Assembly: GCA_964016885.1 (NCBI GenBank)
Contig: OZ024744.1
Coordinates: 109,244,001-109,308,000, forward strand
Origin: Eledone cirrhosa
Lineage: Eukaryota
Direction: 5' to 3'
DNA length: 64,000 nt
Shown: piece after piece, positions 30,847-64,000 of the stretch
How the letters are laid out: each line of letters opens with the position of its first letter
How positions within the stretch are numbered: the first letter of the stretch is position 1
Notes under the pieces: model-generated
What the model was told of the DNA's origin: nothing
Databases searched by the model: none
Seen by the model: the letters and a program-made list of their open reading frames with translations, nothing else
Program-made: the position numbers and the translations under genes

Positions 30847-30945
30847 AAATAAATTCTCTTGTTTATTAATCTCCGAATGACAAAAAATTGAATCCGTTAC
30901 TTAAACTCTGGGTGCCTTTGCTACTGAGACTATGCAATAATAATT

Positions 30946-31124
30946 GTTTCTACTTTTTGGCACAAGGCCAGCAAACACCCCCAGTGCATTACTGGTTCTT
31001 TATTTTATCGATCCCGTAAGGATGAAAGGCAAAGTTAACCTCGGCGGGATTCGAACTCAGAATGGCAAGGACCGTAACTCTATGCGTCAAAGTATCGAGT
31101 CCGACCCTCTACCGATACTACCAA
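30946..31124 (-). mobile_element. tRNA-derived SINE, family A
   Basis: A-box-like TTGGTAGTATCGGTAGAG, B-box GAGTTCGAATCC, same core and tail as the other copies. Confidence 0.88.
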
Positions 31125-31133
31125 TGTAATAAT

Positions 31134-31320
31134 TGTTTCTACTTTTGGCACAAGGCCAGCAATTATTCCAGTGCATTACTGGTACTTTATTTTATCGACT
31201 CCGTAAGGATGAAAGGCAAAGTTATCCCCGGCGGGATTTGAACTCAGACCATAAAGGGCTGTGACTCTTTTCTGCGAAGCATGGCATCCAACCCTCTACC
31301 GATATTGCCAATCTACAGCC
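31134..31320 (-). mobile_element. tRNA-derived SINE, family A
   Basis: Full head (TTGGCAATATCGGTAGAG ... GAGTTCAAATCC), core and tail; tandem with the preceding copy. Confidence 0.88.
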
Positions 31321-35028: not shown

Positions 35029-35051
35029 AATAATAATAAAAATTAATAATG

Positions 35052-35235
35052 GTTTCTAGTTTAGGCACAAGGCCAGCAATTGCCCAGTACATTACTGGTA
35101 CTTTATTTTATCGACCCCGTAAGGATGAAAGGCAAAGTTAACCTCGACGGGATTTGAACTCAGACTGTAAAGGGACATAACTATGCTAGAAAGCATGGCG
35201 TCCAACCCTCTACCGATACTGCCAATTCCCCGCCC
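35052..35235 (-). mobile_element. tRNA-derived SINE, family A
   Basis: Full head, core and tail, flanked by AAT repeats. Confidence 0.9.
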
Positions 35236-35265
35236 TTATAATAATAATAAAAAATAATAATAATG

Positions 35266-35378
35266 GTTTCTACTTTAGACACAAGGCCAGTAATTTTGGG
35301 GGAGGTGAAGTCGATCAAATCGACCCAGTGCATCACTGGTACTTTATTTTATCGATCCCGTAAGGATGAAAGGCAAAG
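35266..35378 (-). mobile_element. tRNA-derived SINE, family A variant, 3' half
   Basis: Core and tail present, with an extra hairpin GTCGATCAAATCGAC absent from the other copies; head missing. Confidence 0.8.
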
Positions 35379-36892
35379 CTTTCTCCATTGAAGAAAACGG
35401 GTGCCGACGAGGTTCATATGGTTGTAAAGATCAACTCTTGATTAATCGTATGATCCTTTTAGAACTGTCATAATAAACACAGAAATCTCAGTTCTTCATG
35501 GATCAACTTCAAAAAAAGCCTTTGACAGCATACCGCACTCATGGATTCTGAAATCACTGGACATCTTCAAAATCTCACCTGTGATCTCAAACTTCCTGAA
35601 ACACAATATGTCATTATGGAACACACATCTCCAATTATTTCATTCCAATGGAGTACTAAGTTCTAACAATATTAACATCAACTGTGACATTTTCCAGGGT
35701 GACTCACTTTCTCCCTTAATTTTTTTGCGTAGCTTTAATACCCCTTACATCTGAACTTAATAAAACAGGGTACGGTTACAACATTGACAAGAAAATAAGC
35801 GACCTATTTTATATGGAGGGTTTAAAGCTATATTGCAAAGACAATAACGAGCTTGAAGGCCCTTTACGGACAGTAAAAACATTTAGTGGTGACATCAGGA
35901 TGGAGTTTGGACTTGATAAGTGTGACAAGGCCACTTTCAATAAAGGGAGGCTTATCAACTCAACTCAGTTGAATTAGATGCTGAAACAGTCATAAAAGAA
36001 CTTGAACAGGAACAAACCTATAAATACTTAGGCATTAATGAGGGCTGTGGCATACAGCATGCAAGTATGAAAGAGAGGATAAGGAAGGAATGTTACAGGA
36101 TAGTACGTGCAGTTCTGAGATCAGAACTAAATGCTCATAACAAGGTGTTAGCCATAAATTCCTTGGCAGTCCCAGCTGTCACTTATAGCTTCGGTGTGTT
36201 GAACTGGAATATGAGTGAAATTAAAAGAAACAACACTAAAATCCGTAAGTTACTGACCTGTAATAGGATGCACCACCCGAAAGCAGATGTGGATCGTCTT
36301 TACCTTCCTAGACCTCAAGGAGGCCGTGGTCTGATCCAATTGGAATTTACCTACAAGACCACCACTATTGGACTGGCCAAATACTTTGAAACAACAAACG
36401 ACTGTATGCTGAAACTTGTTGAAAAGCATGAGAGAAATAAGAAGCTTCATTCTATCTTGAAGGAGAGCAAAACATATGCTACTGATCTTGTGTTGATACC
36501 CAGGTTGAACAGACTGAGGAAATTGTTGCAATTGTTGCTGCTAAGCACATAAAATTAATGGCAAAAGCAAAAGGGCAAGGACAATTAGCATCAAATTTGG
36601 AGCAGAAACTTCTGCATGGCAAACATGTGGCCCGCAACAAACAAGCTGATGTTGATCAAAAGCACACCCATCAGTAGCTACATAGCTCAGGGCTAAAGGC
36701 AGAGAGTGAAGGCTTCATCTTAACTGCCCAAGATCAAATCTTACTGACTCGGAATTATCAGGCCAATGTGAGGTTGAAACAGTGGACCACCTAGTTTCTG
36801 GATGTAAAGTTTTAGCCCTAACAGAGTACAAATATAGACAGAGTTGGCCAATATCTACACCGGGTAATATGTCGACATTATAAAATCAAAGC

Positions 36893-37067
36893 GCAGTGGA
36901 TTGGCAGTATCGGTAGAGGGCCGGACGCTATGCTATGCTTTGCAGCAAAGAGTCTGAGTTCAAATCCCGCCGATGTTAACTCTGCCTTTCATCCTTACGG
37001 GATCGATAAAATAAAGTACCAGTAATACACTGATTTAATTGCTGGCTTTGTGCCAAAAGTAGAAACA
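36893..37067 (+). mobile_element. tRNA-derived SINE, family A, with 16-bp target-site duplication
   Basis: Full SINE flanked by ATTATAAAATCAAAGC (36877-36892) and ATTACAAAATCAAAGC (37068-37083), inside the Dong reading frame. Confidence 0.93.
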
Positions 37068-37499
37068 ATTACAAAATCAAAGCTGAAGACAAGTGGTACA
37101 ATCATCACCTGAGGCTGTAACTGAAGGAGAAAAAGTAACAGGAATTTCCTGTACATACTGACAGGACCATAAAAGCAAATAGACCTGACATCATTGTAAA
37201 AGACCAACATAACAAGGTCTGTTTATTGATAGATATGAGCATCCTATGTGATCACAATATCTCGGCAAAAGAATTTGACAAGCTACGAAAATATAAAGAT
37301 CTGCTTATTGAAATGGAGAAAATGTGGCAATACCAGTGATTGTGGGGGGACTGGGAATGATCAAGAAAGGAACAGAAGAGTATTTGAGAATGATTCCTGG
37401 TTTACCCTCTCTGCAAGAGGTGCAAAAAATTGTTTTGACTGGTACTGCACACGTATTGAGAAGAGCACTATCTCTGTGAGAATGATATCCCTCCTTGTA

Positions 37500-40967: not shown

Positions 40968-41011
40968 AATAGATAGTACATCCGCAATGTTCTGAAAGTC
41001 ACGTAAATATC

Positions 41012-41190
41012 GTTTCTACTTTAGGCACAAGGCTAGCAATTACACAGTGCATTACTGGTACTTTATTTTATCGATCCCGTAAGGATGAAAGGCAAAGTTA
41101 ACCTCGACGGGATTTGAACTCAGACCGTAAAGGGGGGGGGTAATTATGCTAGAAAGCATGGCGTCCGACCCTCTACCAATACTGCCAATT
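41012..41190 (-). mobile_element. tRNA-derived SINE, family A
   Basis: Full head, core and tail; flanked by GTAA(A)TATC; the empty site is visible at 39252-39260. Confidence 0.9.
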
Positions 41191-41225
41191 CACTGTAATA
41201 TCAGCAGGTATTAAGAGCAATAACT

Positions 41226-41386
41226 GTTTCTACTTTAGGCACAAGGCCAGCAATTACCCAGTGCATTACTGGTACTTTATTTTATCGACCCCGTAAGGAT
41301 GAAAGGCAAAGTTAACCTCGGCGGGATTTGAACTCAGATCGTAAAGGGACGTAACTATGCTGGAAATCATGGCGTCCGACCCTCTA
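41226..41386 (-). mobile_element. tRNA-derived SINE, family A
   Basis: B-box, core and tail intact; extreme 5' end missing. Confidence 0.88.
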
Positions 41387-41545
41387 TCCGAACCTTGTCT
41401 TCAGAACATAAACACATTTTAAATCATGTCACTTAGGTAGGATTAGATCAAGCGTGAAAAACATACCAATAATTTTACCAAAATGAAATCATTGTGGGTA
41501 TCAGCCAGAAAGGACCCAATATATTTTCTGTTACCAAACACAGCT

Positions 41546-41736
41546 GCGGTTGGATTGGCAGTATCGGTAGAGGATCAGACGCCATGCTTTGCAGCAAAGA
41601 GTTACGGCCCTTTATGGTCTGAAATCAAATCCCGCCGATGTTAACTTTGCCTTTCATCCTTACGGGGGTCGATAAAATAAAGTACCGGTAATACACTGGG
41701 GGATAATTGCTGGCCTTGTGCCAAAAAGTAGAAACA
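41546..41736 (+). mobile_element. tRNA-derived SINE, family A
   Basis: TTGGCAGTATCGGTAGAG head, core GCCTTTCATCCTTACGGGG.TCGATAAAATAAAGTACC, tail GGCCTTGTGCC..GTAGAAAC. Confidence 0.9.
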
Positions 41737-42078
41737 ATTATTACAAAAGGTTTTACAAGACGGGTATTTAACAAAAAAAAACCTTTAAGATGAAAGGGAG
41801 ATAACTCACATCTAGCTTGTGTGTATTAATACACAGAAGATCTCCAATTATATGTGAAATATTTACTATATTAAGAAAAATAATTATTTAAATATCATTA
41901 GGCTATTATTAAAGATTAGAATCTTTAATAATTTCTGTAAGTTTACCATGTCTGTAAGTGGGAGGAGAGAATCCAGCCTAAGTGACCAATGAAAAAGGTT
42001 TTATTTGTGAGAGGAGGAATTACCGCTGATGAAAACCCACTTAATTTATGTATTGTGGATAGGGGAGGGGGAAGGTGA

Positions 42079-44192: not shown

Positions 44193-44326
44193 TGACATCA
44201 ACTGTTAATTAGTGGTACAGTGACATCAAACACAAACTAATATTTCTGAATTAATGGTATATCGTCGAACCAACACCACCACCACCACCACCACCAACAC
44301 CACCACCACCACAATCACCAACACCA

Positions 44327-47300
44327 TCGACCCTATCGAATGCTTTCGATTGATCTAAATTGATCAGTTCCCCACCGAAGCCAGGTTTACACCCTACCCT
44401 CGCTATGGTGTATCGCATGAGGTGGAGGTTGTCGTCTATGGACCTGGCTGGGATTGCACAAGTTTGCGCCTCCCCAACCAAATCCTCGACGACAAGCGCC
44501 AATCTCTTTGCTAACACCTTGGCCAAAATCTTAAACTCTGTGTTGAGCTGAGTTATGGGCCTGAAGTTGTCTAATGTATCCCTCTTGTTCTCGTCTTTCC
44601 TTATCAGCGTCACCACTCCCCTGCTCACAGAACTGGGAATACTCCCATTCTGCTGCCAGTTGCAGTAAAGTGCTTCGAGGAGTTCGGAGAACAAATCTGG
44701 CATATTTACGTAAAGCTCGTAGGGCAGGCCATCCAAACCGGGTGACTTGCGCCTTATGCAGCCGACAAGGCCGTCCTGAATTTCGGCTAAAGTAATCGGC
44801 CTTTCGCAGCGCTCAGCGTCGACCGTCGAGATGCGCGGCAAGCCGTCAAGGTAGGGACTGAAATCCGCTACTCTCTCTCTCTGACTTGTCACTCTCCCCG
44901 AACAACCGAGCAAAGTGCTCGCGAAAGGCCTCACACATCCGCTTGGAATCGCTTATCTCGTGTCCGTCTCGGTCCGCCAAAGACCTAATTGTGGTTTTAT
45001 TACCACGCTGCGCCTCCATAACGTGGGCTCATCTAACAACTTTGGTTCCCTCGTTTCTCAGCGCACGCGCCTTAGCTCTGACAATTCAACCTTCGTGTTT
45101 CGCGTTGAAGAAATGGTCTAATGCCATTCTCGCCGTTAGCACGTCAGTTGCAATGCCACTACAAATAGCCTCGTCTAACTTATCTACCAGCTGCCCCTCC
45201 TTTCTATTTTTCTCTAACGCTAGTTCTTTGCTGAACTCTATCGAAGTTACTCTAATCTCTCTTTTGAGAGCCCCCCACCATCTGTTGTTGCTGATCCCCC
45301 CTGTCAAATTTTGCTTAACTAAATTGTTGACTCGGTCCCTGTAAGCCTTACGTGCCGGAAATGACATGTTCAGCTTCCAGTAACCCGGTCCCAACCTACG
45401 CGTTTTATCTAGGTCGACCGTACAGATCACAAATTTGTGATCTGAATAGGCGACCGTTTTAAAAAGTGGGCAGCCTACACTATTTCTATCTATTTTCCTA
45501 ATGAAGATCCTGTCTATATACGATCTAGATGACCCCATTCGGTTGGTCCATGTCCATACTGGCACATTGGGGAAATCTAGTCGATACCTGTCAGACAGTT
45601 GGAACTGGCTGAGTAGGTGCTTGAGGCTTTTGCACCCCCCGCTCCTATCGGCTACTCCCACACAATCCCAGCGTGCGTCTAAGATGCCATTCCAGCCCCC
45701 CGCTAACCGTAAAGGGCGAGACGTACCCAGAAAGGTCTCCAGGCGCCTAAAGATGTCCGGTCGTCCGGCCCCTGTAGGGGCGTAGACGGCCAGCAGTCTA
45801 AAGGCACCACCTTCGCTACTGCTCACATCCAAGACCACCAACTTACCGTCCGGGTCCCGGAAGATCGACCTTACCTCGAGATCCAGTCCTTTCCTAAACA
45901 GCACTGCCACCCCACCCCCCATCATTCCCGGTCTGCTAACAGATGCGAAGATCTGATAGTCGTTGAAAATGGGGGCTAGTGCGCGCGTGTCGGAAATTCT
46001 GGTCTCGCTGACGGCAGTCACATCCATTTCCAGCGACCTGAGGTCGTTGAGCAGGCGACCCTGCTTCCAGGGTGACCCAGGCCGCGAACATTTAAACTTC
46101 CTACTCTTAATATGGCTATATTGGTAAGCTAAGAGAGAGAGGGAAGGTTTACTTACCTCCCGGGGTCTTGTGAAGGTCGGGTGGTTCGACCTCCATGGTT
46201 GGTGGGGGTTTCTTTTGGGAACCCCTTTAAAAGTCTTGATGTGGGTTTCACATTCGGGGTTCCCACGTCTTGAGGAAAGCTCTCTCGAATTTCTTTGTAG
46301 GAATTGAGTCACATTCGGACCAGAAGCAAATCTTCTGGCACGCAAAATTAACTCATTTCAAAAATCTCCCCCTCTGTTTGAATGTCCTCGCTTCGTGCTA
46401 AGAGTGCCGTTAGTTTATCGTTGGCCCTTCTGACAAGCACGAAGTTTTTAACATTTTGTTGGTGTGGTTTTATTTGTTTTCGTTTTGGTGACTGTGGTGG
46501 TGATGGTTTTGGTGGTGTTGTTTCGGGTATGTCTGTGTTTGTTGTAGGTGTGGTGTCTGAAATTTCAAGTATCTGTGTGTTTATTTGTACTTGTGTTTGT
46601 TTAGGTTGTTTGCGTTTCGGGGATTGTGGAGGTGGTGTCGATGTTGCTGTTAGTGATGATGTTATTGGGGAAGTGTTTGCGTTAGTGGTGTTTGTATTTT
46701 TTGTTGTGTATGTTTTTCTGTTTTGTTAGGGCTTTTTTTTTGTGAGTTTTCTCTGGTTTTTTTTTGCACTTTTGGGTTTTCCTTCATCTTCGCTGCTGGA
46801 AGACAAAGGTTCTGTGGGTGTGAATGTCTCTGTGTCTGTGTGTGCGTTTATTGTTTTGTCTATGTGTATAATTGGGAGGGGGAGGGGGAGTGGGAGAGCT
46901 TTCCTCGTTTTCCCCTTGGATTGGTTTTGGTGTTGGTGGTGATCCGGCTATTTTTGATGTTGGTGTCCGTGTTTTTGTTGGTGTTGTTTTTGGTGGTGGT
47001 GGTGCAGCTTTCTGTGCTGACACTGGCGTTGGCAACAAAGGAGGTTTGCGACCCCCTGCATTTTTGCGCTGAGGGTAGAAGGCTTGCAGATGCGTTGCTT
47101 CCCCGCAGACGAAGCAGCGTGGCCTTCTTCCGTCAATGATTAGTTGGATTGTTGTCCCGTCCTGCAGACGGGCAAAATCCGGGATGTTGTTCATGTCATC
47201 CGGTTTCATTTGGAGAAGAATCTCCAAATCCATTCCGGACCAGTCCTCTCTCTCTGTCCTTTTGATATCCAGGAGGGTAGTGTCTGTCCCCTCCTCGATT

Positions 47301-48332
47301 ACGCATCCCAGCAGCCACCATATGTTCATTCCTGGTGGGATGCTGGGAATGCGGACCTTTACTGTCCTTTTAGCCATGTAGGACGGGTGCATGATAATGC
47401 GTTCCGTTCTGCAGGGGGTCACCGAGTGCTTAATAGCGAGGGCCTCGGTTTTGAACAGTACCGAGATGGTACCGAACTGCTTGGCTTTTGCTTTGTACTC
47501 TATGTTACTTTCGTAGACTCCAAAGCAGCCTCGACCCCTGCTTGGCTGGCAAGTTCCACTTTTCGTGTCTGCACCGAAATGCATCGAAAGAACACCGTCC
47601 TCCTTTGCATGGCCGCTATTGCCTCGTCCGGGATGGTCATGTTTGCCCAGGATTTCTCCCGTTTAATTAGCCTCCACGCTTTGGCCAACTGTTCGTCTTT
47701 ATCGCTAATATCAATATCAATATTCAATAAGCGCTTTGTTTTTGCTGTTGCTGCAGCAAATGTGGTGCTTCTGATGCTCTTATTGTTGGTGTTGTTCTTG
47801 CTGTTGTTATTGGTGTTGTTGTTGTTGTTTTGTTTGTTGATGCTGTTGCCACCGCCATCTGTGTTTACATTGAAGCTGTCGGTGTTATTGTCGTTATTGC
47901 TCCGAGTTGCTGTTGTGGTGGTGGTGGCGGTGGTGGTGATGTCGTTTTCAGATGATACTGCTGCTATGGCAGAAGGTTGTGATGGTAGCTTTTGAGTTTT
48001 GCCTTCACATTCAGTAGAGTGGATGACAGGCATGACTGTAGCCGTCGTAGTCGTGGTGAAATCTGCAGTGGCTGCTTTAAACTTTTGACCTGAACGTTGT
48101 TTACCGTTTCAAGGTCGAAAATTTCCATAATTTTTTTTTAAAGATTTTTTTCGAAGTTTTAAAAAATAAATCTGAATATTCGGGATTAAAACCCGAATAT
48201 TGAGAGGTATCCCACTCTTTAAATCAAGATGTGTACCTTAAGTTTCGTTAACGACAAGAAAATACAAAAAATGACACTTTAAAACAGCTTAAAGTTACGA
48301 ACCTTTTCCCCCGCAGATTTGTACTGTCTTCA

Positions 48333-48421: not shown

Positions 48422-48449
<28 letters not shown>

Positions 48450-48460
<11 letters not shown>

Positions 48461-49023
48461 TGTATATATAGTGTATTTTGCAATACACTGTATGCTTAAT
48501 TAAAAGCATTTTGAAGACCATACGCTATTGTTTTAAAGTAGCGACAACGACGCTTACTTAAATTTTCAGCAAACAAGGTCTTCAAAATGCATTTAATTAA
48601 GCATACAGTGTATTGCAAAATACACTATATATACAATCATATATATATCGCTATTTCAGAGCACCAATTCCAATTTTCAATTTCTACTGGACCGACAACC
48701 GCTCTGTATAATCAGTTCCTGATTATTACTGGAATTCTATAAGAATCCAACACACATAATTTTCAGCAAACAGGGAGAGTGAGCTTTGATAAGTACCAAC
48801 AAGTACGAAACAGAGAGAGTGAGCTTTGCTAAGTACCAACAAGTACGAAACAGAGCTCTGTCAGCTTATCTCCCCTTGTTTGCTGAAAATTTAAGTGAGC
48901 GACATTGTCGCTACTTTAAAACAATAGCGTATGGTCTTCAAAATGCTTTTAATTAAGCATACAGTGTATTGCAAAATACACTATATATACACTCATATAT
49001 ATATCGCTATTTCAGAGCACCAA

Positions 49024-49027
<4 letters not shown>
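48450..49027 (+). mobile_element. Hammerhead-containing non-coding element: about 356-nt partial tandem with 5' inverted segment (retrozyme/Penelope-like)
   Basis: 48577-48670 is repeated at 48933-49027 (offset 356). 48450-48578 is the reverse complement of about 48874-49002. Hammerhead in the middle; (TA)n on both sides. Confidence 0.75.
48758..48891 (+). ncRNA. Type I hammerhead ribozyme, U3-A8 core variant, with 40-nt internal duplication
   Basis: GUGAGCU-UUGAUAA-GUAC caacaa GUAC-GAAA-(40-nt duplication carrying UUGCUAA)-CAGAGCUCUG-UC^AGCUUAU. Stem I continues GGGAG/CUCCC and AAUUUUCAGCAAACA/UGUUUGCUGAAAAUU. Confidence 0.82.
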
Positions 49028-49053
<26 letters not shown>

Positions 49054-49066
<13 letters not shown>

Positions 49067-49982
49067 TCAATTTCCAATTGTAGGAATCCTATAATGAAAC
49101 GAGACGTCCGTCTGGGAATAGATATATTCGATATGTCTCATATGAAATAATACAGCCAATTTTCCACGCAATACTTTTAGTTAGCACCCCGAACGCATAA
49201 TTGGGAATATAATCACTTATTTCCTAATGTTTGTTGAGTGAGTTGGAATTTGGCCGGAGTATCGCTAAAAAGCTTTCTCCGATATTGTATTTATTTATTT
49301 ACTCTTGGCGCAGCAGATTTGAAATTCCCGGTATAAGGTTAGCATTTCTTTGTTTATTTTTTATATATGAATATTGATTGTTCCTTATATCTCATTCTGT
49401 TATTTTGCCCAAGAAAATATCTGTGTGTCATCAAATGTTGTACACACATAGATATTTTTTCAATTTCCAATTGAGTTCTTAGCACGTGGCCTGAATTCCT
49501 TTCAGAGTTCATTGTCATGCGCATGTATTGTTTTTTTGGCGGTAATTTACTTCCTCATTTTTGAATCAGTTTAAGCATTTCTTTAGAACTGCTGGACTGG
49601 CAACCTGACAGATACCTCAGGCACAGATGATGATTATCGCTAAATACTGATGTTGGTTAGATTATCAATATTAGTATTATTGGGGCACCCACTGATGAAT
49701 TATAGGAGCCCACTTGAATATATATCTATTGATGGTATACAAGCTCCTACATAAATTGGTATAATTTCACCCAAATTGTAGGAATCCTATAATGAAACGA
49801 GACGTCCGTCTGGGAATAGATATATTCGATATGTCTCATATGAAATAATACGGCCAATTTTTCCACGCAATACTTTTAGTTAGCACCCCGAACGCATAAT
49901 TGGGAATATACTCACTTATTTCCTAATGTTTGTTGAGTTAGAATTTGGCCGGAGTATCGCTAAAAAGCTTTCTCCGATATTG

Positions 49983-49988
<6 letters not shown>
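49054..49988 (+). mobile_element. Hammerhead-containing non-coding element: about 700-nt partial tandem (retrozyme/Penelope pLTR-like)
   Basis: About 215-bp direct repeat 49076-49290 / 49775-49988 (offset 698). TTTTCAATTTCCAATTG occurs at about 49064 and 49457. Flanked by (TA)n; no ORF. Confidence 0.72.
49688..49814 (+). ncRNA. Type I hammerhead ribozyme with canonical core and enlarged stem II
   Basis: CCCA-CUGAUGA-AUUAUAGGA[77 nt]UCCUAUAAU-GAAA-CG AGACGUC CG-UC^UGGG. All core nucleotides canonical, GUC triplet, predicted cut after 49810. Confidence 0.88.
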
Positions 49989-52015
<2,027 letters not shown>

Positions 52016-52237: not shown

Positions 52238-52474
52238 TTATTATTATTATTATTATTATTGAATGCCATGGTTGACGGAGGCTCGGCTCTGTAAGGTATA
52301 GTAATTTTTAACCGTTAAAACAATTGTAAATTGTTTAAAACTTGAACCAAATTGTTGATAAAGACACCCTCCTCCTCGTGAGAGGGGTCTTTCTGTCCGT
52401 TATTTGGCCCTTCGGGGTTAAATAACCAGTTATTGGGGTTTTGTACCCAATATTCATTTTAAACAAAAAACAAC

Positions 52475-54574
52475 ATGGCTACGAAAAAGAAATTTCATAC
52501 GTCACTCCCACTCATTCCGTCTTCTTCTTCCTCAATCATCACTACAGCAGAGAGAAGATTGTCTCTCTCCCTCCCTTCTTTAAATGTGTCTCTCTCCCTC
52601 CCTTCTCTTTCGCAAGTGACGAAAGAAAAGAAAAGTCTCGTGCAAAGCGTGCAAGGTTTCTCCACGACGACGACGACAGCGACGAAACAGGTGTGCGGGA
52701 AATACGAAAACCCAGTTCATTCGTCTGACGTCAGGAATAATAGCAGTAGCAGCCGTAATAACAACAGCAACAGTGACAATGAAAACAACAGTAGCAGCCG
52801 CAACAGCATCACCAGCAGCATAAACAACAACAGCATTAGCAGCAGCAACACCAACAACAACCACAGCAACAGCGGCGGAGGCAGTAGTCGTAGTACCTGC
52901 AGCAACAACAAAAGTACCAGCAGCTCTGACGACAACAACAACAATAGCAGCAAAGAAAAACCAATCTCATTTGCAGGCATTGCGAAAAACTTGGAAACAA
53001 TCCTCATAACAAATGAGGAATTAGAGGAAGCGAAGAAGACGGTGACAAAGAATGGATACCGAGCAATCTGCAAGACAGCGGAAAAGTTTTTCGAAACCCA
53101 ACAGCACTGTACGGTCACGTACCGTACAGTAAGTACAAAATCCCGTAGGGTGGAAAGAGCCACAGAGGCTCAGATACAAAAAGCCTTGGGGTCTGTGTGG
53201 CAGCGGAAAACGCACATCACCCGAGGCAAAAAATATGCCACCGTAGAGGTACTTTTTGCCACACCCCAGGAGGCAAAGGCCCAATCAGTAGTGACCCTAA
53301 GGAGCGAGGAAATGGTGTTGGTGCCCTCCTACTGCGGGCAAAAAATTGTAAGGGTCAAACTGACCCACGTCCCCCCCGGAATGGCCCCTTCTTGGCTGGC
53401 CGCGTCTGACCTCGTCGGAATCGAGGACAAAACAACTGTACTGCAAGTACAGAAAAAAGTAAGAGAAGATTGGGTCGGCACCTCCATTGAGATGCTAATC
53501 CAAACCAACCAGGAGTGCATCGAAGCTATCCCGGATGTGATAGACTTCGATAACGGCACTCAACTGCCCATAAGTGTTGAGGGCAAACGCCCGAAATGCT
53601 TTCGCTGTGGATCGAAGACTCACCTCAGGGCCTTCTGCAACGAGAAGACCCTGAGAAAGGAGAAAACCCCCCTCCTTCCGAATCCGGCTCCACGGCTACC
53701 AGCAACAGGACAAGCGGCAACCAGGAACGATAGGTCCGTGGCACCCATACCCACTCCACGGAAATCAAAAACAGCAGCAGCAGTGGAAATATTAACAACA
53801 ACAACAGCAATACCAAATGCAGCTGCAACAGAGACTCCAGTGCAAACATCACCAACAACAAGTGAAAGAGTGGAGCTGGTACACCTCCCCGACCTCACAG
53901 AATCAGACATGGAGTGTGAGGTGGGAGAGGGATGGCAAAAGGTCGTAAGAAGACACAAACGCAGAAGCAGCGCATCGTCGCCTTTGAAAAGGGAGGAAAG
54001 AAATGAGAAAAGGGTAAAGTCTACTGCAAAGAGACCCACAGCAGCAACACCACCAACACCATCACCACCCACACTAGCACCACCATCACCACCGGCGACA
54101 ACCCCACCGCCAACAACACCTTCAACACCACCACCACAAGCACCAACATCGCAAACACAACAACAAAACACACACACCCAGCAACAACGACAAGAAAATA
54201 GCAGAACCACACCCCACCCCCAGAAAAACAAATGCACGGCAATAAATACACACAATAAGAAACTAATGACTTACATAATTGAACACACAGACATTTCACA
54301 ACAGGACTACATAATACCAGCACCAATCAAAACGCCAACTAACATAAGACTGCTAAAAATAGCACAGAAACAATACACAAACATTAAAACGAAATTCCCC
54401 AACGCAGTTGGTGATTTCAGGGACCTAGGAGGAACCATCAATCGAAGAGTATATTCAGACATTCTCTTAGAAGAGCCGACGACCAGCCGAAGGGACGATT
54501 CAACGGTCCCTTCACCAGACGATCAAGTGAAAAGGGATGTAAAAACCATCCCTCCTCTACCAAAAGTACGGTAA
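52475..54574 (+). CDS. Tx1 ORF1 nucleic-acid-binding protein (699 aa)
   Basis: Uninterrupted ORF; CCHC knuckle CFRCGSKTHLRAFC preceded by VEGKRP; Ser/Asn- and Pro/Thr-rich linkers; homologous to the minus-strand copies. Confidence 0.88.
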   Translation: MATKKKFHTSLPLIPSSSSSIITTAERRLSLSLPSLNVSLSLPSLSQVTKEKKSLVQSVQGFSTTTTTATKQVCGKYENPVHSSDVRNNSSSSRNNNSNSDNENNSSSRNSITSSINNNSISSSNTNNNHSNSGGGSSRSTCSNNKSTSSSDDNNNNSSKEKPISFAGIAKNLETILITNEELEEAKKTVTKNGYRAICKTAEKFFETQQHCTVTYRTVSTKSRRVERATEAQIQKALGSVWQRKTHITRGKKYATVEVLFATPQEAKAQSVVTLRSEEMVLVPSYCGQKIVRVKLTHVPPGMAPSWLAASDLVGIEDKTTVLQVQKKVREDWVGTSIEMLIQTNQECIEAIPDVIDFDNGTQLPISVEGKRPKCFRCGSKTHLRAFCNEKTLRKEKTPLLPNPAPRLPATGQAATRNDRSVAPIPTPRKSKTAAAVEILTTTTAIPNAAATETPVQTSPTTSERVELVHLPDLTESDMECEVGEGWQKVVRRHKRRSSASSPLKREERNEKRVKSTAKRPTAATPPTPSPPTLAPPSPPATTPPPTTPSTPPPQAPTSQTQQQNTHTQQQRQENSRTTPHPQKNKCTAINTHNKKLMTYIIEHTDISQQDYIIPAPIKTPTNIRLLKIAQKQYTNIKTKFPNAVGDFRDLGGTINRRVYSDILLEEPTTSRRDDSTVPSPDDQVKRDVKTIPPLPKVR

Positions 54575-54609
54575 GTGGTCTTTCCCATCTTTTCCACTCT
54601 ATTTTAAAC

Positions 54610-57600
54610 ATGACCTCACTCAGAATAGGCAGCATAAATGCGCGTGGCTTGGGGTCGTCACGGAAGCAGGGTCACCTGCTCAACGACCTCAGGTCACTAA
54701 ACATAGATGTAGTGCCCATCAGTGAGACCAGAATCTCCGAAGCACGGGCCTTCGCACCGATCTTCGGCGGCTACGATGTGTACGCATCTCCCAGCCGTCC
54801 TGGATCCGGTGGAGGAGTTGCTGTGCTTTTTCGGAGAGGTTTGGATCTCGCCATACGGGCCATCTTCCTGGACCCAGAGGGTAAGCTGGTGGTGCTGGAC
54901 GTGACCAGCGGAGACGGGCAAGCTTTCAGGCTAGTGGCCGTCTATGCCCCGACAGGAGCAGGGCGGCCTGATTTCTTCCGGCGTCTGGAGACCTTTCTTG
55001 GAACGTCCCGCTCTTTAGTGTTAGTGGGCGACTGGAACGGGATCTTAGATGCACGCTGGGACTGTGTGGGATTAGCGGATAGGGGTGGAGGGTGCAAGAG
55101 CCTCACCAACCTGCTCAGGCGTTTTGAACTGTCTGACAGGTACCGATTGGATTTCCCGAATGTGCCAATGTGGACTTAGACAAACCGCATAGGGTCATCC
55201 AGATCATATCTAGATAGAGTATTTTGTAGGGAAATAGATAGGTCTAGCATAGGCTGTCCACAATTCAAGATAGTCAGCTACACGGACCACAAATTCGTGA
55301 TCTGTGTGCTTGACTTAGATAGGCTTCATAGACGAGGACCCGGCTACTGGAAGCTAAACGCGTCCTTACCAGCGCGCAAGGCCTACAGAGACCGGATTAG
55401 CGAACTAGTTAAGCGGGCGTTGACGGGGGCCATCGTCAACAACAAGTGGTGGTTTGCTCTGAAAAGAGCGATTAGAATAGAATCGATTAGGTTTAGTAAG
55501 GCTTTAGCAATAGAGAAAAATAGAGCAGAGGGAGAACTAGTTAGAAAATTAGACGAGGCGCTTAGCAAAGGCATTGCGACCGACGTGCTTGCGGCGAAAT
55601 TGGCCCTTGACCAATTCTTCAATGCAAAGCACGAAGGCTGCGTTGTCAGAGCAAGGGTGCGTGCTCTCAGACACGAGGGGACGAAAGCCGTTCAATGGGC
55701 CCGAGTGGCGGAGGCGCGTCGTGGCAACAAAGCCACGATCCGGTCTTTGGTGGACCACGACGGGCGCATGCTACTCGATCCCGGGCAAATATGTGAAGCT
55801 TTTCAGCGACACTTCGCTCAGCTGTTCGGGGGCAGCGGTGGGCCGGGTAGAGGGATGGACTTTAGTGTCTACCTCGACGGACTGCCGCGGCTCTCGGCCA
55901 CTGAGGCGAAGTGTTGCGAAAAGCCGATAACAGCCGCTGAAGTAAGGGAGGCAATGACTGGCTGCACAAGGGGTAAATCGCCTGGTTTGGATGGTCTGCC
56001 CTATGAACTTTACGTACAGATGCCAGACTTGTTCGGAGGCCTCTTGGTGGACGTCTACTGCAACTGGCAACAGAACGGGAGAATTCCCAGTTCTGTGAGC
56101 CGAGGAGCGGTGGCACTGCTGAGAAAGGATCCGAACAAGGGGGATAACATAGATAATTTCCGGCCCATAACTCTGCTAAACACAGAGTTCAAGATGTTGG
56201 CCAAGGTGCTAGCAAAGAGGTTGGCGCTTGTCGTTGGTGGTCTGGTGGGAGAGGCGCAGACATGCGCCATTCCCGACAGATCCATCCACGACAACCTCCA
56301 CCTCATGCGATACATCATAGAGAGGGTAGCTAAGGAACCTGGCACGGGTGGGTCCTTGATCAATTTAGATCAGTCGAAAGCTTTCGATAGGGTCGACCAT
56401 CGTTACCTAGCGGCAGTCCTGAGGGCGGCTGGCTTTGGGCCCGTCTTCAGAGGCTGGATCGCTGCCATGCACAGCGACATCTGGTCTGTGGTGAGAGTGA
56501 ACGGTCACCTGTCGGAACCGTTCAACATCATGCGCTCGGTCCGCCAAGGATGTCCCCTCTCGTCCCTCTTGTACGTATTGACTCTCGAGCCATTACTGCA
56601 CAAACTGGAGACGTTGAGGGGAGTCCCGCGCGAACTAGGATGCGGAAGATCCGTGCCAGCATATGCGGACGATGTCACCGTAGTGGTGTCGAACGCCAAA
56701 CACATCGAGGCGATCGGCACTACACTAAGAGAATACGAAGCGGTGACAGGAGCAATGATCAACCAGGAAAAGTCAGTGGGCCTGCAGCTCGGCACCTGGA
56801 GAGGCAGGTCCATGCCGTCCAACAGCGTCGTCGGGCGCTGGAGAGCGGACCGGTTAAATTGCTAGGGGTCTGGTTCGATCCGGACCTCCAGACGGACAAA
56901 AACTGGGACGAGGTGACGAGCAGGGTGGCTTCTCTCACCCAGAAATGGGCGGAGAGGAAGCTATCCCTGAAAGGTCGAGCGGAGGTGGCTAACGCGTACA
57001 TCGCGTCTGTCATCTGCTACCGCCTGACCGTCGTACCTTGTCCTAAGCCTCGCCTGACTGCGCTGGAGCGTTTGCTCTTTCGCTTTTTGTGGAAGGGACG
57101 TGCTCCGATGGTCAGGCAGTCCATCTGTTGTCAACACCCGCTACGTGGAGGGATGGGCATGCCGTGGCTGATGATGCGCAGGCACGCGCTCAGGCTACGA
57201 CATCTCCACCTCTCCCTCGACGGTGATCAGGTGTGGTCGCCGTTTGCTAGACGCGTATTTCCCCAGCTCGTTTCCTTGACGGAGCTGCAGTCCTGGGTCA
57301 AGCGAAGACCGAGAGGGAGCGCCTGGAGACTGGAATGTCTTCAGGCGCTCACAGCCCTCGACCAATCGGGCAATGTGATCGGTGGAAACTCCACCTCGGC
57401 GTTCTATAGAGGATTAGTGGAGGGGAAGAGCGACGACGTACTTGGGGAAACTCTAGGCGTCGACGAAAATCAACTAGCCAATCTCTTCGGAAGAACTTTC
57501 GGGCCGGGGCCTATGGACAACTTCCAGAAATCTCTGGGCCTGGCAGTGCTACCGAGGAGCCTTGCCAGTTCGGGATAAACTCTACAGGCATGGAGGTGCC

Positions 57601-58335: not shown

Positions 58336-61300
58336 AGTTGCATTTATCTTGCTTTATGTTCATACGAGTTATCACCAAGTCACAACCAGTGACCTCAAGA
58401 GACAACAAGGTCCGCCATGTTCAAGAAAGAACATACATACTCACACATGCATCTTTAGTGTTTAGACTTTTGATGTACTTATATTGACAGAATCTTCCTT
58501 AGTATATGGGCAGTTCGCATTAGTACTATCTTTTGTATTTCTCCTATACGTGGGCTTCCTGGGATTTGCGATAAGTAATCATTAGACCACTTAGGTATCA
58601 TTCCCAGAGCGCCTACAACCAATTCTTTTGATGGGGCAGGTCAAAATGCTTACACATTATCCAATGTATGTATTGTGCAGCTCTGTCATGCCTGTTTAGG
58701 TATTCGGTTGGAGCTATAGGACTGCGCATTGAAATTATATGGTCAATGGTCTCTGGTTGTTTTTTGCATACACGGCATAATGGGCTGCATCCATTTTTTA
58801 TTATGTTGGCTTGGTGATTTCAGTCCAGAGGATGCCAAACACTGATGGGTTAAAGTTTTGTCAACATCAGGATTGTTAGCGCGCTCTGGGTATTTTCCAT
58901 ACAGAGGCTTTTCTTGCCATTTCTTAGCCAGTTTCTGTAGCAGTTCTTTCTTTGCAGTTACTTTTACCTGCTTTGCTTTTTCTGTGTTTTCCATTTCAGC
59001 AGTAAATGGGTCGTCTGAAATTTGTAGTCCATTACTGTATCTTTGTGCATCTTTTGTAATGGAATATGATCTTTTGATGCTTTCGTGTTTCAAAACGAGT
59101 TTGATCATCCAATCATGTGATTCCCTTAGATATGTAGATAATCCAATTGTTGCAGTTTTCAACGCAATGTCTAACTGGATTAACCCACGTCCTCCTTCTT
59201 TCCTAGGGAGATATATTCTATCTATATCTGCCTTAGGGTGATGCGTTCTGTGCATGGTTAAGAATTTTCGAATTTTTGTATCGAGCCTACGGATCTCTGT
59301 GCTTGACCAGTTGATGACATTGTAACTATAGGTTACTACTGGTATGGCAAGCGTGTTTATGGCATCGATCCTATTCCTTGCATTCAATTCCGTTCTTAAG
59401 ATTGCTCTTACTCTGCGGTAACATTCCTTCCTTATCCTTTCCTTCATTGTCGAGTGATTGATTCCGTCTCCTTCACAAACACCTAGATATTTGTAAGTTT
59501 TTTCTTGATCAAGTTCTCTTATCACGTTCCCCCGATCAAGATTAATGTCTGAACTCTTCAGCAGCTTTCCTCTGGTGAATGTTGCTTTGGCGCATTTATC
59601 TAGTCCAAACTCCATTTTAATGTCATCACTGAACTGCTCCACAGTGGATAATAGCCCTTGCAATTGTTCATCATTTTTTGCAAATAGTTTCAGGTCATCC
59701 ATGTAGAACAAGTGATTAATGGTTTTGTCATAGACTTTATATCCATGCTTTGTTTCATTGAGCATTTTACTTAATGATATAAGTGCGATGCAGAATAAAA
59801 GCGGTGATAAAGAGTCACCCTGAAAAATTCCACAATTAATATTAACTTCTCCAGCTTCCAGTGATTTTGTTTCACTATTCAAAGGGAGTGTCGTTCTCCA
59901 TGTCTTCATACTGAATGACAAAAACCTCCTGACAACGGGGGATATTTTGAAAATCTCTAAACATTTTTCAATCCAACTGTGTGGCAAACTATCGAATGCT
60001 TTTTTATAATCTATCCAAGCAATCGATAGATTTTTGTGTCTATTATGACAATCTTCCAGTATCATTTTGTTAACCAGAAGCTTATCCTTACAGCCATATG
60101 AGCCTCGTTTACACCCTTTCTGCTCAATGGGAAATAGGTCATTTGTTTTCAGGTGGTCATATGTGTATTCAGTTAGGACTGATGTTAAAATTTTATACAT
60201 TGTGGTCAAGCAAGTTAACGGTCTGAAATTTTTGGGATTGTTTGTCTCATCATTCTTCGGAAGCAGGAATGTAATGCAGCTAACTAGCCATGATGGTATC
60301 TTTTCTGGCTCCTTAACTATTTCATTGTAAAGTTGGGCTAACAGCTCATGAGACTCTGTGAAGGCATTTATCCAAAAGTTTTGTATTTTGTCTTTTCCTG
60401 GGGATTTCCATTTGCTAGTTTTTCTTAGAGCCAAGCGCAACTGTTCAACTGTTATATTCTCCCATATTTGTTCCTCAAGGTGAGCTGTATCTTTCATTTG
60501 TCTGTCTATCCATAGGGCATGTATGTTATGAACTTTTTCTTCGGCCCAGATCTTTTCCCAGAATTCTTGCACTTCCTCCTTGGGTGGTATTGATTTAGCA
60601 GTTATTGTTGACTTACCAATTTTTCTGTAGGAGTTTCTTTGGTTGTTTTTGAACATATTATTGTCCTTATAGAATCTAGATCGTTTTTCAAAGCGCCTTA
60701 TACGAGCAGCTTTGGCCGACACTTTTTGCTTGATTATTTCTATCAGCATGTCTATGTCACTTGTTGATTTTATACTGTACTTTTTGTTCAATTTTCTAAG
60801 TTTAGTTTGTTTAACATGTTCACCTACTTTATAGTTTGTTAACATTTCTATGTCAGATCGGAGAAGGTTTATTTGGCGATTGATGTTATCTTGCCAAGTA
60901 GATTTCTTGTGGGAATTCCTTTGTTTTTTCATCTTCACTCCACATAAGTGAGTGGTGACTTTAGCCGATGCATAATAGAGATGATTTAAATCAGTAATGT
61001 TTAGTTTATTTGTGATGATAATGTTTTTGAGAATTATGTTAGTCTTGTGTATTATCTTTTGGTTCTGTTTGGAGTTCTGGATCTTAGGGAGGGTGTCTCG
61101 TTGCCCCATGTCAGATTCTTTCATTTTCATCCATTCGATCATAATTTCATCCTTCAAGTTGGCAAGTTCATTCTCATTCATTTCTTTATCATTTACGATC
61201 TCATTATTTTCATTTGGAGTTTCATCTTGAGCATGCACTCCCTCCACTTTTTCGATCCTTTCTTTAATTTGTTCTGTTGCCAGTGATTCCGCCCCAACCC

Positions 61301-61912
61301 TGGGATTCGAAGTGTTACAATTTACCTCGTTTTCACTGACACATGTTTCATTTTCCCTTCGCTGACTTTGTGCTAATAGCTTGATCTGATCAATTTCTAT
61401 ATCAGTTAGTAACATTTTTCTTACAATATTTCTTCGTATATTGGCTAGTTTGTTACTGTCAATATAGCCTCTGTTTTCGGGATATTTCTTTTTCCAGTTG
61501 ATATATGTCTGTTCTGTATTCGATGTATTTGATGGGTAGTACATGGCAGTGTAGAAAGCCTCAAGGACTTCTTTATTATCTTCCCTTGACCATTTTTCTC
61601 TCTTTTTCTTTGGATTTCTTGGTGGTGAGCATGGAGGGCCAACAGTAGGAGTATTCCGGTTATGGCAGGTCTCCAGCTCCGAAGTGATGGGAAGGTTTGA
61701 ACCGTTAGCTGATTTTTCGACCCCAGTCTGGTTCCTCTCTGAGGGACGCGGCCCTTTTTTACCCGGGTGACGGCCGATCCGGTATGAGATTTTATCATTA
61801 GACATTTACTTTATTTTGTCGTGTTTTATCCTTATCCGCCAAGGGGTAATCATTTCGTGTTACCACTTCTAGAACCAAGACTAGAGGGGTCGTTCTCCCC
61901 TAGAGACACGGC
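58335..61912 (-). mobile_element. R4/Dong-type non-LTR retrotransposon, copy 1 (both ends present, two deletions)
   Basis: 107-nt 5' UTR directly after (TAA)n, single ORF, 3' UTR ending in (TAA)n. Relative to copy 2 it lacks 56 bp (at about 58815) and 268 bp (at about 58620). Confidence 0.95.
58743..61805 (-). CDS. R4/Dong polyprotein (N-terminal DNA-binding-like region + RT), truncated before the endonuclease
   Basis: REKWSREDN..W..KYP..KLANIRRNI, KSPGKD, FRPLTCL, QKGCKRGSYGCKD, WIDYKKAFDSLPH, GIFQGDSLSPLLF, HLFYMDDLKLF, HPKADIDRIYLPRKEGGRGL. Frame lost after GLKS. Confidence 0.9.
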   Translation of the reverse strand: MSNDKISYRIGRHPGKKGPRPSERNQTGVEKSANGSNLPITSELETCHNRNTPTVGPPCSPPRNPKKKREKWSREDNKEVLEAFYTAMYYPSNTSNTEQTYINWKKKYPENRGYIDSNKLANIRRNIVRKMLLTDIEIDQIKLLAQSQRRENETCVSENEVNCNTSNPRVGAESLATEQIKERIEKVEGVHAQDETPNENNEIVNDKEMNENELANLKDEIMIEWMKMKESDMGQRDTLPKIQNSKQNQKIIHKTNIILKNIIITNKLNITDLNHLYYASAKVTTHLCGVKMKKQRNSHKKSTWQDNINRQINLLRSDIEMLTNYKVGEHVKQTKLRKLNKKYSIKSTSDIDMLIEIIKQKVSAKAARIRRFEKRSRFYKDNNMFKNNQRNSYRKIGKSTITAKSIPPKEEVQEFWEKIWAEEKVHNIHALWIDRQMKDTAHLEEQIWENITVEQLRLALRKTSKWKSPGKDKIQNFWINAFTESHELLAQLYNEIVKEPEKIPSWLVSCITFLLPKNDETNNPKNFRPLTCLTTMYKILTSVLTEYTYDHLKTNDLFPIEQKGCKRGSYGCKDKLLVNKMILEDCHNRHKNLSIAWIDYKKAFDSLPHSWIEKCLEIFKISPVVRRFLSFSMKTWRTTLPLNSETKSLEAGEVNINCGIFQGDSLSPLLFCIALISLSKMLNETKHGYKVYDKTINHLFYMDDLKLFAKNDEQLQGLLSTVEQFSDDIKMEFGLDKCAKATFTRGKLLKSSDINLDRGNVIRELDQEKTYKYLGVCEGDGINHSTMKERIRKECYRRVRAILRTELNARNRIDAINTLAIPVVTYSYNVINWSSTEIRRLDTKIRKFLTMHRTHHPKADIDRIYLPRKEGGRGLIQLDIALKTATIGLSTYLRESHDWMIKLVLKHESIKRSYSITKDAQRYSNGLQISDDPFTAEMENTEKAKQVKVTAKKELLQKLAKKWQEKPLYGKYPERANNPDVDKTLTHQCLASSGLKSPSQHNKKWMQPIMPCMQKTTRDH

Positions 61913-61937: not shown

Positions 61938-64000
61938 TGCATTTATCTTGCTTTATGTTCATACGAGTTATCACCAAGTCACAACCAGTGACCTCAAGAG
62001 ACAACAAGGTCCGCCATGTTCAAGAAAGAACATACATATTCACACATGCATCCTTAGTGTTTAGACTTGTGGTGTACTTATATTGACAGGATCTTCCTTA
62101 GTATATGGGCAGTTCCCATTAGTACTATCTTTTGTATTTCTCCTATACGCGGGTTTCCTGGGATTTGCGATAAGTAATCATAGACCCCTTAGGTATCATT
62201 CCCAGAGCGCCTACAACCACTGGTATTGTTTTAGTTCTCAATTTCCACATTTTTCCAATTTCTATCTCCAGGTCCTTATACTTGCTCAATTTTTCAAATG
62301 TTTTTATAGATACATTCTTGTCTATTGGAACAGACATATCAATTAGCAGGCATACCCTCCTTTGAAAGTCCTTCAATATTATATCAGGTCTATTTGCATT
62401 TATTTTTCGGTCTGTTTGGATGCTAAAGTTCCACAAGATTGAGATGTGATCTTTTTCAAGTATGGGAGGTGGTTGATGCTCCCACCAATTCTTTTGATGG
62501 GGCAGGTCAAAATGCTTACACATTATCCAATGTATGTATTGTGCAGCTCTGTCATGCCTGTTTAGGTATTCGGTTGGAGCTATAGGACTGCACATTGAAA
62601 TTATATGGTCAATGGTCTCTGGTTGTTTTTTGCATACACGGCATAATGGGCTGCACCCATTTTTTATTATGTTGGCTTGGTAATTTTTTGTTGGCAGACA
62701 CTGATCTTGTGCCGATATAATCAGTCCTTCAGTCTCCGATTTCAGTCCAGAGGATGCCAACCACTGATGGGTTAAAGTTTTGTCAACATCAGGATTGTTA
62801 GTTCGCTCTGGGTATTTTCCATACAGAGGCTTTTCTTGCCATTTCTTAGCCAGTTTCTGTAGCAGTTCTTTCTTTGCAGTTACTTTTACCTGCTTTGCTT
62901 TTTCTGTGTTTTCCATTTCAGCAGTAAATGGGACTTCTGAAATTTGTAGTCCATTACTGTATCTTTGTGCATCTTTTGTAATGGAATATGATCTTTTGGT
63001 GCTTTCGTGTTTCAAAACGAGTTTGATCATCCAATCATGTGATTCCCTTAGATATGTGGATAATCCAATTGTTGCAGTTTTCAACGCAATGTCTAACTGG
63101 ATTAACCCACGTCCTCCTTCTTTCCTAGGGAGATATATTCTATCTATGTCTGCCTTAGGGTGATGCATTCTGTGCATGGTTAAGAATTTTCGGATTTTTG
63201 TATCGAGCCTACGGATCTCTGTGCTTGACCAGTTGATGACATTGTAACTGTAGGTTACTACTGGTATGGCAAGCGTGTTTATGGCATCGATCCTATTCCT
63301 TGCATTCAATTCCGTTCTTAAGATTGCTCTGACTCTGCGGTAACATTCCTTCCTTATCCTTTCCCTCATTGTCGAGTGCTTGATTCCGTCTCCTTCACAA
63401 ACACCTAGATATTTGTAAGTTTTTTCTTGATCAAGCTCTCTTATCACGATCCCCCGATCAAGATTATTGTCTGAACTCTTCAGCAGCTTTCCTCTGGTGA
63501 ACGTTGCTTTGGCGCATTTATCCAGTCCAAACTCCATCTTAATGTCATCACTGAACTGCTTCACAGTGGATAATAGCCCTTGCAATTGTTCATCATTTTT
63601 TGCAAATAGTTTCAGGTCATCCATGTAGAACAGGTGATTAATAGTTTTGTCATAGACTCTATATCCATGTTTTGTTTCATTGAGCATTTTACTTAATGGT
63701 ATAAGTGCGATGCAGAATAAAAGCGGTGATAAAGAGTCACCCTGAAAAATTCCACAATTAATGTTAACTTCTCCAGCTTCCAGTGATTTTGTTTCACTAT
63801 TCAAAAGGAGTGTCGTTCTCCATGTCCTCATACTGAATGACAAAAACCTCCTGACAACGGGGGATATTTTGAAAATCTCTAAACATTTTTCAATCCAACT
63901 GTGTGGCAAACTATCGAATGCTTTTTTATAATCTATCCAAGCAATCGATAGATTTTTGTGTCTATTATGACAATCTTCCAGTATCATTTTGTTAACCAGA
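61938..64000 (-). mobile_element. R4/Dong-type retrotransposon, copy 2 (runs off the right edge)
   Basis: Closely similar to copy 1; its 3' UTR and 25-nt TAA tract abut the 5' end of copy 1. Confidence 0.95.
62143..63987 (-). CDS. R4/Dong polyprotein C-half: RT, CCHC knuckle, restriction-like endonuclease (partial)
   Basis: YMDD RT, CRVCKKQPETIDHIISMC, RHD, NRPDIILKD..LLIDMSVP..KLSKY. A 1-bp deletion near 62182 shifts the conserved tail (GTAHILRKILSI) out of frame. Confidence 0.9.
   Translation of the reverse strand: MILEDCHNRHKNLSIAWIDYKKAFDSLPHSWIEKCLEIFKISPVVRRFLSFSMRTWRTTLLLNSETKSLEAGEVNINCGIFQGDSLSPLLFCIALIPLSKMLNETKHGYRVYDKTINHLFYMDDLKLFAKNDEQLQGLLSTVKQFSDDIKMEFGLDKCAKATFTRGKLLKSSDNNLDRGIVIRELDQEKTYKYLGVCEGDGIKHSTMRERIRKECYRRVRAILRTELNARNRIDAINTLAIPVVTYSYNVINWSSTEIRRLDTKIRKFLTMHRMHHPKADIDRIYLPRKEGGRGLIQLDIALKTATIGLSTYLRESHDWMIKLVLKHESTKRSYSITKDAQRYSNGLQISEVPFTAEMENTEKAKQVKVTAKKELLQKLAKKWQEKPLYGKYPERTNNPDVDKTLTHQWLASSGLKSETEGLIISAQDQCLPTKNYQANIIKNGCSPLCRVCKKQPETIDHIISMCSPIAPTEYLNRHDRAAQYIHWIMCKHFDLPHQKNWWEHQPPPILEKDHISILWNFSIQTDRKINANRPDIILKDFQRRVCLLIDMSVPIDKNVSIKTFEKLSKYKDLEIEIGKMWKLRTKTIPVVVGALGMIPKGSMITYRKSQETRV

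Follow-up and report, generated by a model that had tools for sequence, protein, structure and literature searches.

The window, that is, the whole 64-kb stretch of DNA analysed here, contains at positions 48758-48891 a predicted hammerhead ribozyme of type I with a U3-A8 core. In our judgement, this motif probably belongs to one copy of an abundant non-coding repeat of about 316 nt, likely a non-LTR retrozyme integrated by a Penelope-type element, and a 40-nt duplication inside this copy, likely caused by slippage, is predicted to weaken its cutting. We regard the locus as a transposon copy that is probably decaying; of greater interest is the family.

A sequence check placed the U3-A8 core UUGAUAA on the plus strand (48786-48792). 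GTAC occurs four times around it (48793-48796, 48803-48806, 48833-48836 and 48843-48846) and GTC occupies 48860-48862, so that C17 is at 48862 and the predicted cut lies just after it. The other elements of a type I core are present, namely a Watson-Crick 3-8 pair and GAAA at 48807-48810 or 48847-48850, and three helices can be drawn: an open stem I of 7 bp, a stem II of 4 bp with G10.1-C11.1 and a stem III of 4-6 bp. Stem I, for which the second copy of the duplication offers an alternative 5' strand (48819-48825 with 48863-48869), leads through an internal loop into the outer stem of 18 bp. The coordinates of all features are given in Table 1.

Table 1. Features of the hammerhead and of the insertion that carries it (positions in the window)
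Feature	Position	Strand	Basis
Inverted, 5'-truncated copy of the 3' part, 131 nt, 97% complementary to 48874-49004	48448-48578	-	
Partial tandem, 3' end of the preceding unit, 98 nt, 97% identical to 48933-49030, spacing 356	48577-48674	+	
Full repeat unit, 356 nt (316 without the duplication), GC 36%, likely non-LTR retrozyme monomer	48675-49030	+	
Outer stem around the ribozyme, 18 bp	48758-48775 / 48874-48891	+	pair check, fold
Stem I, 7 bp including two G-U	48779-48785 (copy 1) with 48863-48869	+	pair check
Intact core UUGAUAA, copy 1	48786-48792	+	sequence
Stem II GUAC/GUAC, 4 bp, 6-nt loop, G10.1-C11.1, and GAAA of copy 1	48793-48810	+	sequence, descriptor scan
Stem III 5' strand of copy 1; 6 bp possible with 48856-48861 across a 40-nt loop	48810-48815	+	pair check, descriptor
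Second 40-nt copy, core UUGCUAA (48826-48832), A6C at 48829	48815-48854	+	alignment
Native stem III, perfect 12-nt palindrome 48850-48861, then C17	48850-48862	+	descriptor scan
Stem I 3' strand (48863-48869) and outer-stem 3' arm (48874-48891)	48863-48891	+	
Penelope-type tail, about 26-35 nt, then (TA)n; carried by the direct copies but not by the inverted copy	49005-49030	+	

We scanned the window with a descriptor of type I hammerheads with a C3-G8 or U3-A8 pair (stem I of at least 5 bp, stems II and III of at least 4 bp, loops of up to 50 nt). In positions 30201-64000 it returned one locus, the hammerhead at 48786-48862, and in 100 dinucleotide shuffles of these 33.8 kb, on both strands, it returned none; no hammerhead was found in the satellite at 1-30300. 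The 141-nt hammerhead region folds with z = -8.4, and none of 200 shuffles was equally stable. A chance hairpin was rejected in view of the shuffles and of the family evidence given below. A looser U3-A8 match at 51041 was rejected: its stems have 3 bp, it lies inside a LINE ORF and it fails the stricter descriptors.

A U3-A8 hammerhead had been proposed here by an earlier, sequence-only reading, and all of its coordinates are correct. The same reading took UUGAUAA for a functional covariant that keeps the 3-8 pair, in agreement with the natural U3-A8 variants that have been published (PMC3088659, PMC4209133). Indeed, natural U3-A8 hammerheads were reported by Perreault et al. in 2011, who cited earlier in vitro activity from Przybilski and Hammann (PMC3088659), and about 1,300 U3-A8 motifs are known in the Cercyon Penelope-like elements of Schistosoma mansoni (PMC4209133); since U3-A8 cores are already published, this central claim is not new. 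Its further statement was that standard CUGANGA searches miss such a core. The Rfam hammerhead families (clan CL00010) also gave no match at the gathering score in the whole window, Hammerhead_HH9 staying below its threshold of 52 bits with a score of 15.6 (E 0.86).

The limits first set for the feature were too narrow, as the hammerhead is part of an insertion that spans 48448-49030 and runs into (TA)n at both ends. A partial copy is joined head-to-tail to the full unit, and the inverted copy before it contains neither the hammerhead nor the last ~26 nt. The full unit folds with z = -9.6. There is no ORF in the insertion, where the longest stop-free frame has 66 aa. No second hammerhead-bearing copy of the ~316-nt family was found in the 64-kb window.

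The unit has the sequence features of non-LTR retrozymes: a type I hammerhead, a length of 356 nt (316 nt without the duplication), a GC content of 0.36 and no ORF, the published units having ~170-400 nt and a GC content below 45% (PMC7229834). Head-to-tail junctions, another of their features, were seen in the window and in three of the sequencing runs described below (X1, X4 and X6). On the other hand, Li et al. 2026 define an active locus by two ribozymes, and here we observed one cut site, the partial and the inverted copies being devoid of ribozyme. Judged by its sequence, 48675-49030 is a monomer derivative rather than an active retrozyme locus.

The mode of insertion points to Penelope. 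Insertions of Penelope-like elements (PLEs) are recognised by a partial tandem, next to which a truncated copy lies inverted, by a tail on one side only and by (TA)n as the target (PMC8557442), the tail marking two start sites of reverse transcription (PMC11167929). All of these features were observed here, the target being a microsatellite, and the hammerhead is likewise located upstream of the two 3' ends; with 26-35 nt, the tail is rather short for the published range of 30-40 bp. In contrast to such insertions, the unit is about ten times shorter and lacks the ORF with reverse transcriptase (RT) and GIY-YIG domains of an autonomous PLE. No such partner was detected in the insertion or in the nine window ORFs scanned, of which four matched RVT_1, one Exo_endo_phos and one zf-RVT, the remaining three matching no family.

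These hallmarks would also be expected if the unit were the pseudo-LTR (pLTR) of an autonomous PLE, left as a truncated remnant, and not an independent circle of 316 nt. U3-A8 hammerheads are known in the pLTRs of PLEs, mostly as single motifs (PMC4209133), and pLTRs and retrozymes are related (10.64898/2026.07.22.740005). However, in the window as in X1, X4 and X6, the tail end runs straight into the head of a unit and leaves no room for an ORF, and the longest frame is too short to speak for one. Moreover, the hammerhead has canonical stems (I of 7, II of 4 and III of 4 bp) with no linked ORF, unlike the minimal form of the Cercyon PLEs (stem II of 7-8 bp, stem I of 4-5 bp, no helix III; PMC4209133), with which it nevertheless shares, as with the variants of Perreault et al. 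(PMC3088659), the core covariation and the association with Penelope-type elements. A pLTR remnant is in our view unlikely.

Evidence for a family of retrozyme units came from sequencing runs. Four of the 12 matching runs were aligned on 48670-49025 at 80% likeness: X1 (3962 contigs) and X10 (5395 reads) from organism A, X4 (34 contigs) from organism B and X6 (10 contigs) from organism C. No aligned piece covers this entire stretch; X4 and X6 are runs with a small share of matches, their pieces having 80-157 nt and 1-12 differences. We observed that the ~316-nt repeat family is abundant and has one hammerhead per unit. Pattern scans of metagenome contigs and of viral contigs gave no match.

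Conservation of the core among paralogues, which the sequence-only reading requires, was found. Of 733 X10 reads, 727 have A at position 48829, which is C in the window, and 6 do not; this apparent conservation is inflated by the clipping of divergent reads. The position is also A in 36 X1 contigs (1721 of 1797 in summed depth, about 4% not being A), in one X4 contig and in two X6 contigs. At least seven joints, carried by 173 X10 reads and counted among the best 14 of 48 joints, skip 37-60 nt in the duplicated part; for those joints whose intervening letters are known, the net loss is close to 40 nt. In addition, the X10 depth is ~185-260 over 48778-48825 and ~760-1120 over 48826-48873. The A6 at 48829, the joints that skip one copy and the drop in depth together indicate that the family state is one hammerhead with A6.

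The core apparently also occurs in a C3-G8 sister form. The loose-end consensus of 20 X1 contigs (agreement 0.79) gave CUGAGGA between the same stems, whereas that of 11 contigs gave UUGAUAA (agreement 0.82); with a canonical CUGAGGA in 20 contigs, the 3-8 pair appears to covary within the family. The core is conserved or covarying in the best 40 of 112 variant rows, among which two rows, the reversion to A6 and a base of loop II, fall within 48826-48862. One X1 contig, with a joint 48781-48842, has a mismatched C3/A8 core; it could be an intermediate of CpG decay from C3-G8 to U3-A8, or a dead copy.

The runs also bear on the ends of the unit. In X1, four contigs contain the head-to-tail junction at 49025->48672, with further ones nearby, and the junction was found in one X4 contig, in one X10 read and at a loose end of X6; full multimers were not seen because the records are short. 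Loose ends of X10 reads accumulate behind 49004 (278 reads) and behind 49024 (436 reads, adjoining the edge of the aligned stretch 48670-49025), and both lead into TA repeats. Two 3' ends about 26 nt apart correspond to the tail signature of Penelope (cf. PMC11167929). Two further patterns were set aside. Piles of X10 read ends at 48679, 48733/36 and 48951/54 were rejected as RNA ends, being AATT sites and likely restriction ends of a RAD library. Nor was the high 3' depth of X1 taken to prove 5' truncation, since copy number does not follow from summed contig depths and the depth of X10 is more uniform.

The proposed 40-nt duplication with a split core is real in the sequence: it is a tandem of period 40 (48775-48814 and 48815-48854), with the core UUGAUAA in the first copy and UUGCUAA in the second, and the two copies differ at a single site (A48789/C48829). 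The second copy was correctly described as having the full stem III and the GUC that ends at 48862 together with the A6C change, and it fails as a type I core at A6. The breakpoints fall on AAACAG microhomologies at 48768, 48808 and 48848, which suggests that the duplication arose by slippage; a second difference between the copies, given by a repeat finder, vanishes when the breakpoint is set on AAACAG. The divergence of 1/40 resembles the 3/98 and 4/131 among the other copies of the insertion, and the duplication is thus possibly of about the same age as the insertion, although these numbers are small. The duplication is likely a local slippage accident and not an evolved switch, and the hammerhead copy at 48758-48891 is likely a damaged one.

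The duplication occurs in none of the X1, X4, X6 and X10 records listed; X1, the best run, contains only half of the query words, so that organism A may differ from the species of the window and the absence there is no proof of uniqueness. An artefact of assembly or consensus, with a true locus that has one hammerhead, would account for this absence, and among the contigs and reads listed none spans the junction of the duplication, nor the whole stretch. Such an error is nonetheless very improbable: the copies differ at one base, the breakpoints fall on microhomology, the difference of 1/40 is like those among the other copies of the insertion, and the aligned runs are probably not from the assembled individual.

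We computed with ViennaRNA the constrained ensemble energies of the folds of 48758-48891 above the free ensemble at 37 °C; as this model omits the non-canonical pairs of the core and the contact between loops I and II, only the ranking of the folds is informative. The descriptor allowed two complete U3-A8 cores to be drawn across the duplication. In fold A, which is the one first proposed, GUAC of the first copy pairs with GUAC of the second, with a 46-nt loop II; in fold B, core 1 and its own stem II are combined with a 6-bp stem III (48810-48815/48856-48861) closed by a 40-nt loop. The energies were +8.4 kcal/mol for A, +5.2 for B and +11.6 for the A6C core. At 20 °C, they were +11.0, +6.7 and +14.0 kcal/mol, respectively. 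In longer and nascent contexts B was still the best, 3.2 kcal/mol under A, with the A6C fold at +8.2 to +9.4. The single-copy state is +2.5 kcal/mol above the ensemble, and the best active fold of the duplicated copy +5.2 kcal/mol, tertiary terms being outside the model. In the ground state, the start of each core is paired with GAAA or AGAG, which would block catalysis. From these models we predict that a core-blocking misfold dominates and that the duplication weakens self-cleavage. In a read-through RNA, 48448-48578 and 48874-49004 are predicted to form a 131-bp hairpin around the ribozyme, and the ranking of the U3-A8 folds is unchanged.

Several points of the sequence-only reading have to be adjusted in consequence. 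Stem III of the first copy is not simply interrupted, since 48810-48815 pairs perfectly over 6 bp with 48856-48861. A core can be rebuilt across the duplication as suggested, but the pairing of the two GUAC copies does not give the best fold, being 3.2 kcal/mol worse than fold B, and fold A would lose the native loop II. Active and inactive folds may compete, the competitor being a misfold that buries the core, whereas the A6C hammerhead is not a real competitor.

Could the duplication act as a conformational switch with a function, or create an active monomeric ribozyme as a pseudo-dimer in cis? Two complete cores are drawable across it, in fold B the native loop II is retained and stem III reaches 6 bp, and both folds use the intact core while the spare one bears A6C; in addition, minimal PLE hammerheads regained some cleavage when helix III was elongated (PMC4209133). 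However, the rescued folds (+5.2 and +8.4) are farther from the ground state than the single-copy one (+2.5), a single substitution in 40 nt hits either copy by chance, there is no host gene to regulate among the nine ORFs scanned and there is only one cut site. A functional switch is also unlikely because the duplication is present in none of the records listed. Taken together, we regard a switch or a working pseudo-dimer as quite unlikely.

We favour instead a retrozyme copy damaged by slippage, for which the following scheme can be proposed. According to published work on retrozymes and Penelope, multimeric transcripts of the family would be cut after GUC once per unit, and the monomers would be circularised by the host ligase (PMC7229834). 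The circles would be reverse-transcribed in trans from one of the two 3' start points and, as we infer here, integrated by a Penelope-like enzyme; reverse transcription in trans from two starts would leave a partial tandem, an inverted truncated copy and a tail in (TA)n, as the sequence has. A slip between AAACAG microhomologies would have doubled the 5' part of the ribozyme (48775-48854), with A6C arising afterwards in one of the duplicates. Residual cutting, if any, would most likely proceed through fold B, with core 1, stem II and the 6-bp stem III provided by the palindrome of the second copy, thereby mimicking in cis the dimer fold of hammerheads with a palindromic stem III. A monomer could not be released from this locus, which has a single cut site.

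Metazoan non-LTR retrozymes (Cervera and de la Pena 2020, PMC7229834), such as those of ~350-390 bp in Mytilus galloprovincialis, are the closest in architecture: they share with the present unit the type I hammerhead, a highly self-paired, ORF-less unit of ~300 nt and low GC, head-to-tail junctions and a palindromic stem III. The present unit differs by its U3-A8 core, apparently found beside C3-G8 in the family, by the single hammerhead-bearing unit at the locus and by the 40-nt internal duplication with A6C. Dimeric hammerheads, that of newt satellite 2 among them (PMC4209133, PMC7229834, PMC3088659), also have a palindromic stem III, and two copies extend the helix; here, by contrast, the partner is a half-copy 40 nt away within one unit, there is a single cut site, and the family is not characterised by the duplication. 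The A6C of the second copy is also found in the hammerhead of phage Bcep176 (PMC7151607), but the change seen in the present copy goes together with U3-A8, is either rare or private, and belongs to the least favoured fold. In another ribozyme, A6C lowered the rate to 3.6e-6 per min, compared with 0.3 per min, at 0.3 mM Mg2+; Mn2+ rescues the A6C hammerhead, which is impaired rather than dead (PMC7151607).

Li et al. derived retrozymes from the pLTRs of PLEs and left the mechanisms of mobilisation to future work, the word 'tail' being absent from the main text (10.64898/2026.07.22.740005). An autonomous element was proposed to integrate retrozymes, with PLEs as a "strong candidate" (PMC7229834). 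The giant squid genome has been noted to contain hammerheads (PMC6962438), and Octopus vulgaris has Penelope families that were active recently (PMC13282606). Among the literature matches listed (titles and abstract openings, mostly open-access; supplements may list further U3-A8 families), none deals with this family or with a tail signature of retrozymes.

A bolder reading, which we hold as possible but less than even, is that this is an undescribed retrozyme family of several species, in which C3-G8 and U3-A8 lineages coexist and copies have the two-start tail and inverted-copy footprint of Penelope, and that the present copy contains a chance-built cis pseudo-dimer that still cuts. If true, a family with this footprint would be direct mechanistic evidence that Penelope enzymes integrate retrozyme circles, a link so far argued from co-occurrence and from pLTR phylogeny. 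With the tail and the inversion as a footprint, who mobilises animal retrozymes becomes testable from sequence alone. The two core pairs, seemingly in one sequence background, would form a natural matched pair in which the cost of the 3-8 exchange is measurable, and the U3-A8 copies of the family escape standard CUGANGA and Rfam searches.

Elsewhere the window is rich in repeats; it appears to belong to an animal genome, and its landscape may resemble that of octopuses. Nearly half of it (1-30448) is a 75-bp satellite of about 409 copies with 93% matches. Dispersed SINE-like repeats of ~187 bp, 72-97% alike, on both strands and some in tandem pairs, occupy 30720-31312, 35044-35378, 36887-37071, 41003-41391 and 41551-41745. 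Two related LINE copies of opposite orientation (44254-47662, minus strand; 52463-57575, plus strand; 74% over 1.8 kb) each contain two frames, one ORF1-like and one for endonuclease/RT, interrupted by stops or frameshifts. On the minus strand, 58746-61805 contains a stop-free RT frame of 1020 codons and has a second copy at 62146-63999, 94% identical over 1.5 kb; this is a young non-LTR retrotransposon.

Right after the (TA)n of the insertion, 49076-49996 (plus strand) is an unrelated partial-tandem element with a unit of about 698 nt, a 227-nt direct repeat (49076-49301/49774-49996, 95.6%) and an end in (TA)n. Inside it, a canonical CUGAUGA lies at 49692; the accompanying stem II has 9 bp and a structured loop of 77 nt, stem III has 3 bp and a loop that is nearly palindromic, GUC ends at 49810, and stem I has 4 bp. 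This candidate has no Rfam match, one comparable match was found in 200 shuffles, its active fold is at +9.3 kcal/mol and a decoy 5' strand of stem II, without core, stands just before its GAAA. The element is possibly another Penelope-type hammerhead element.
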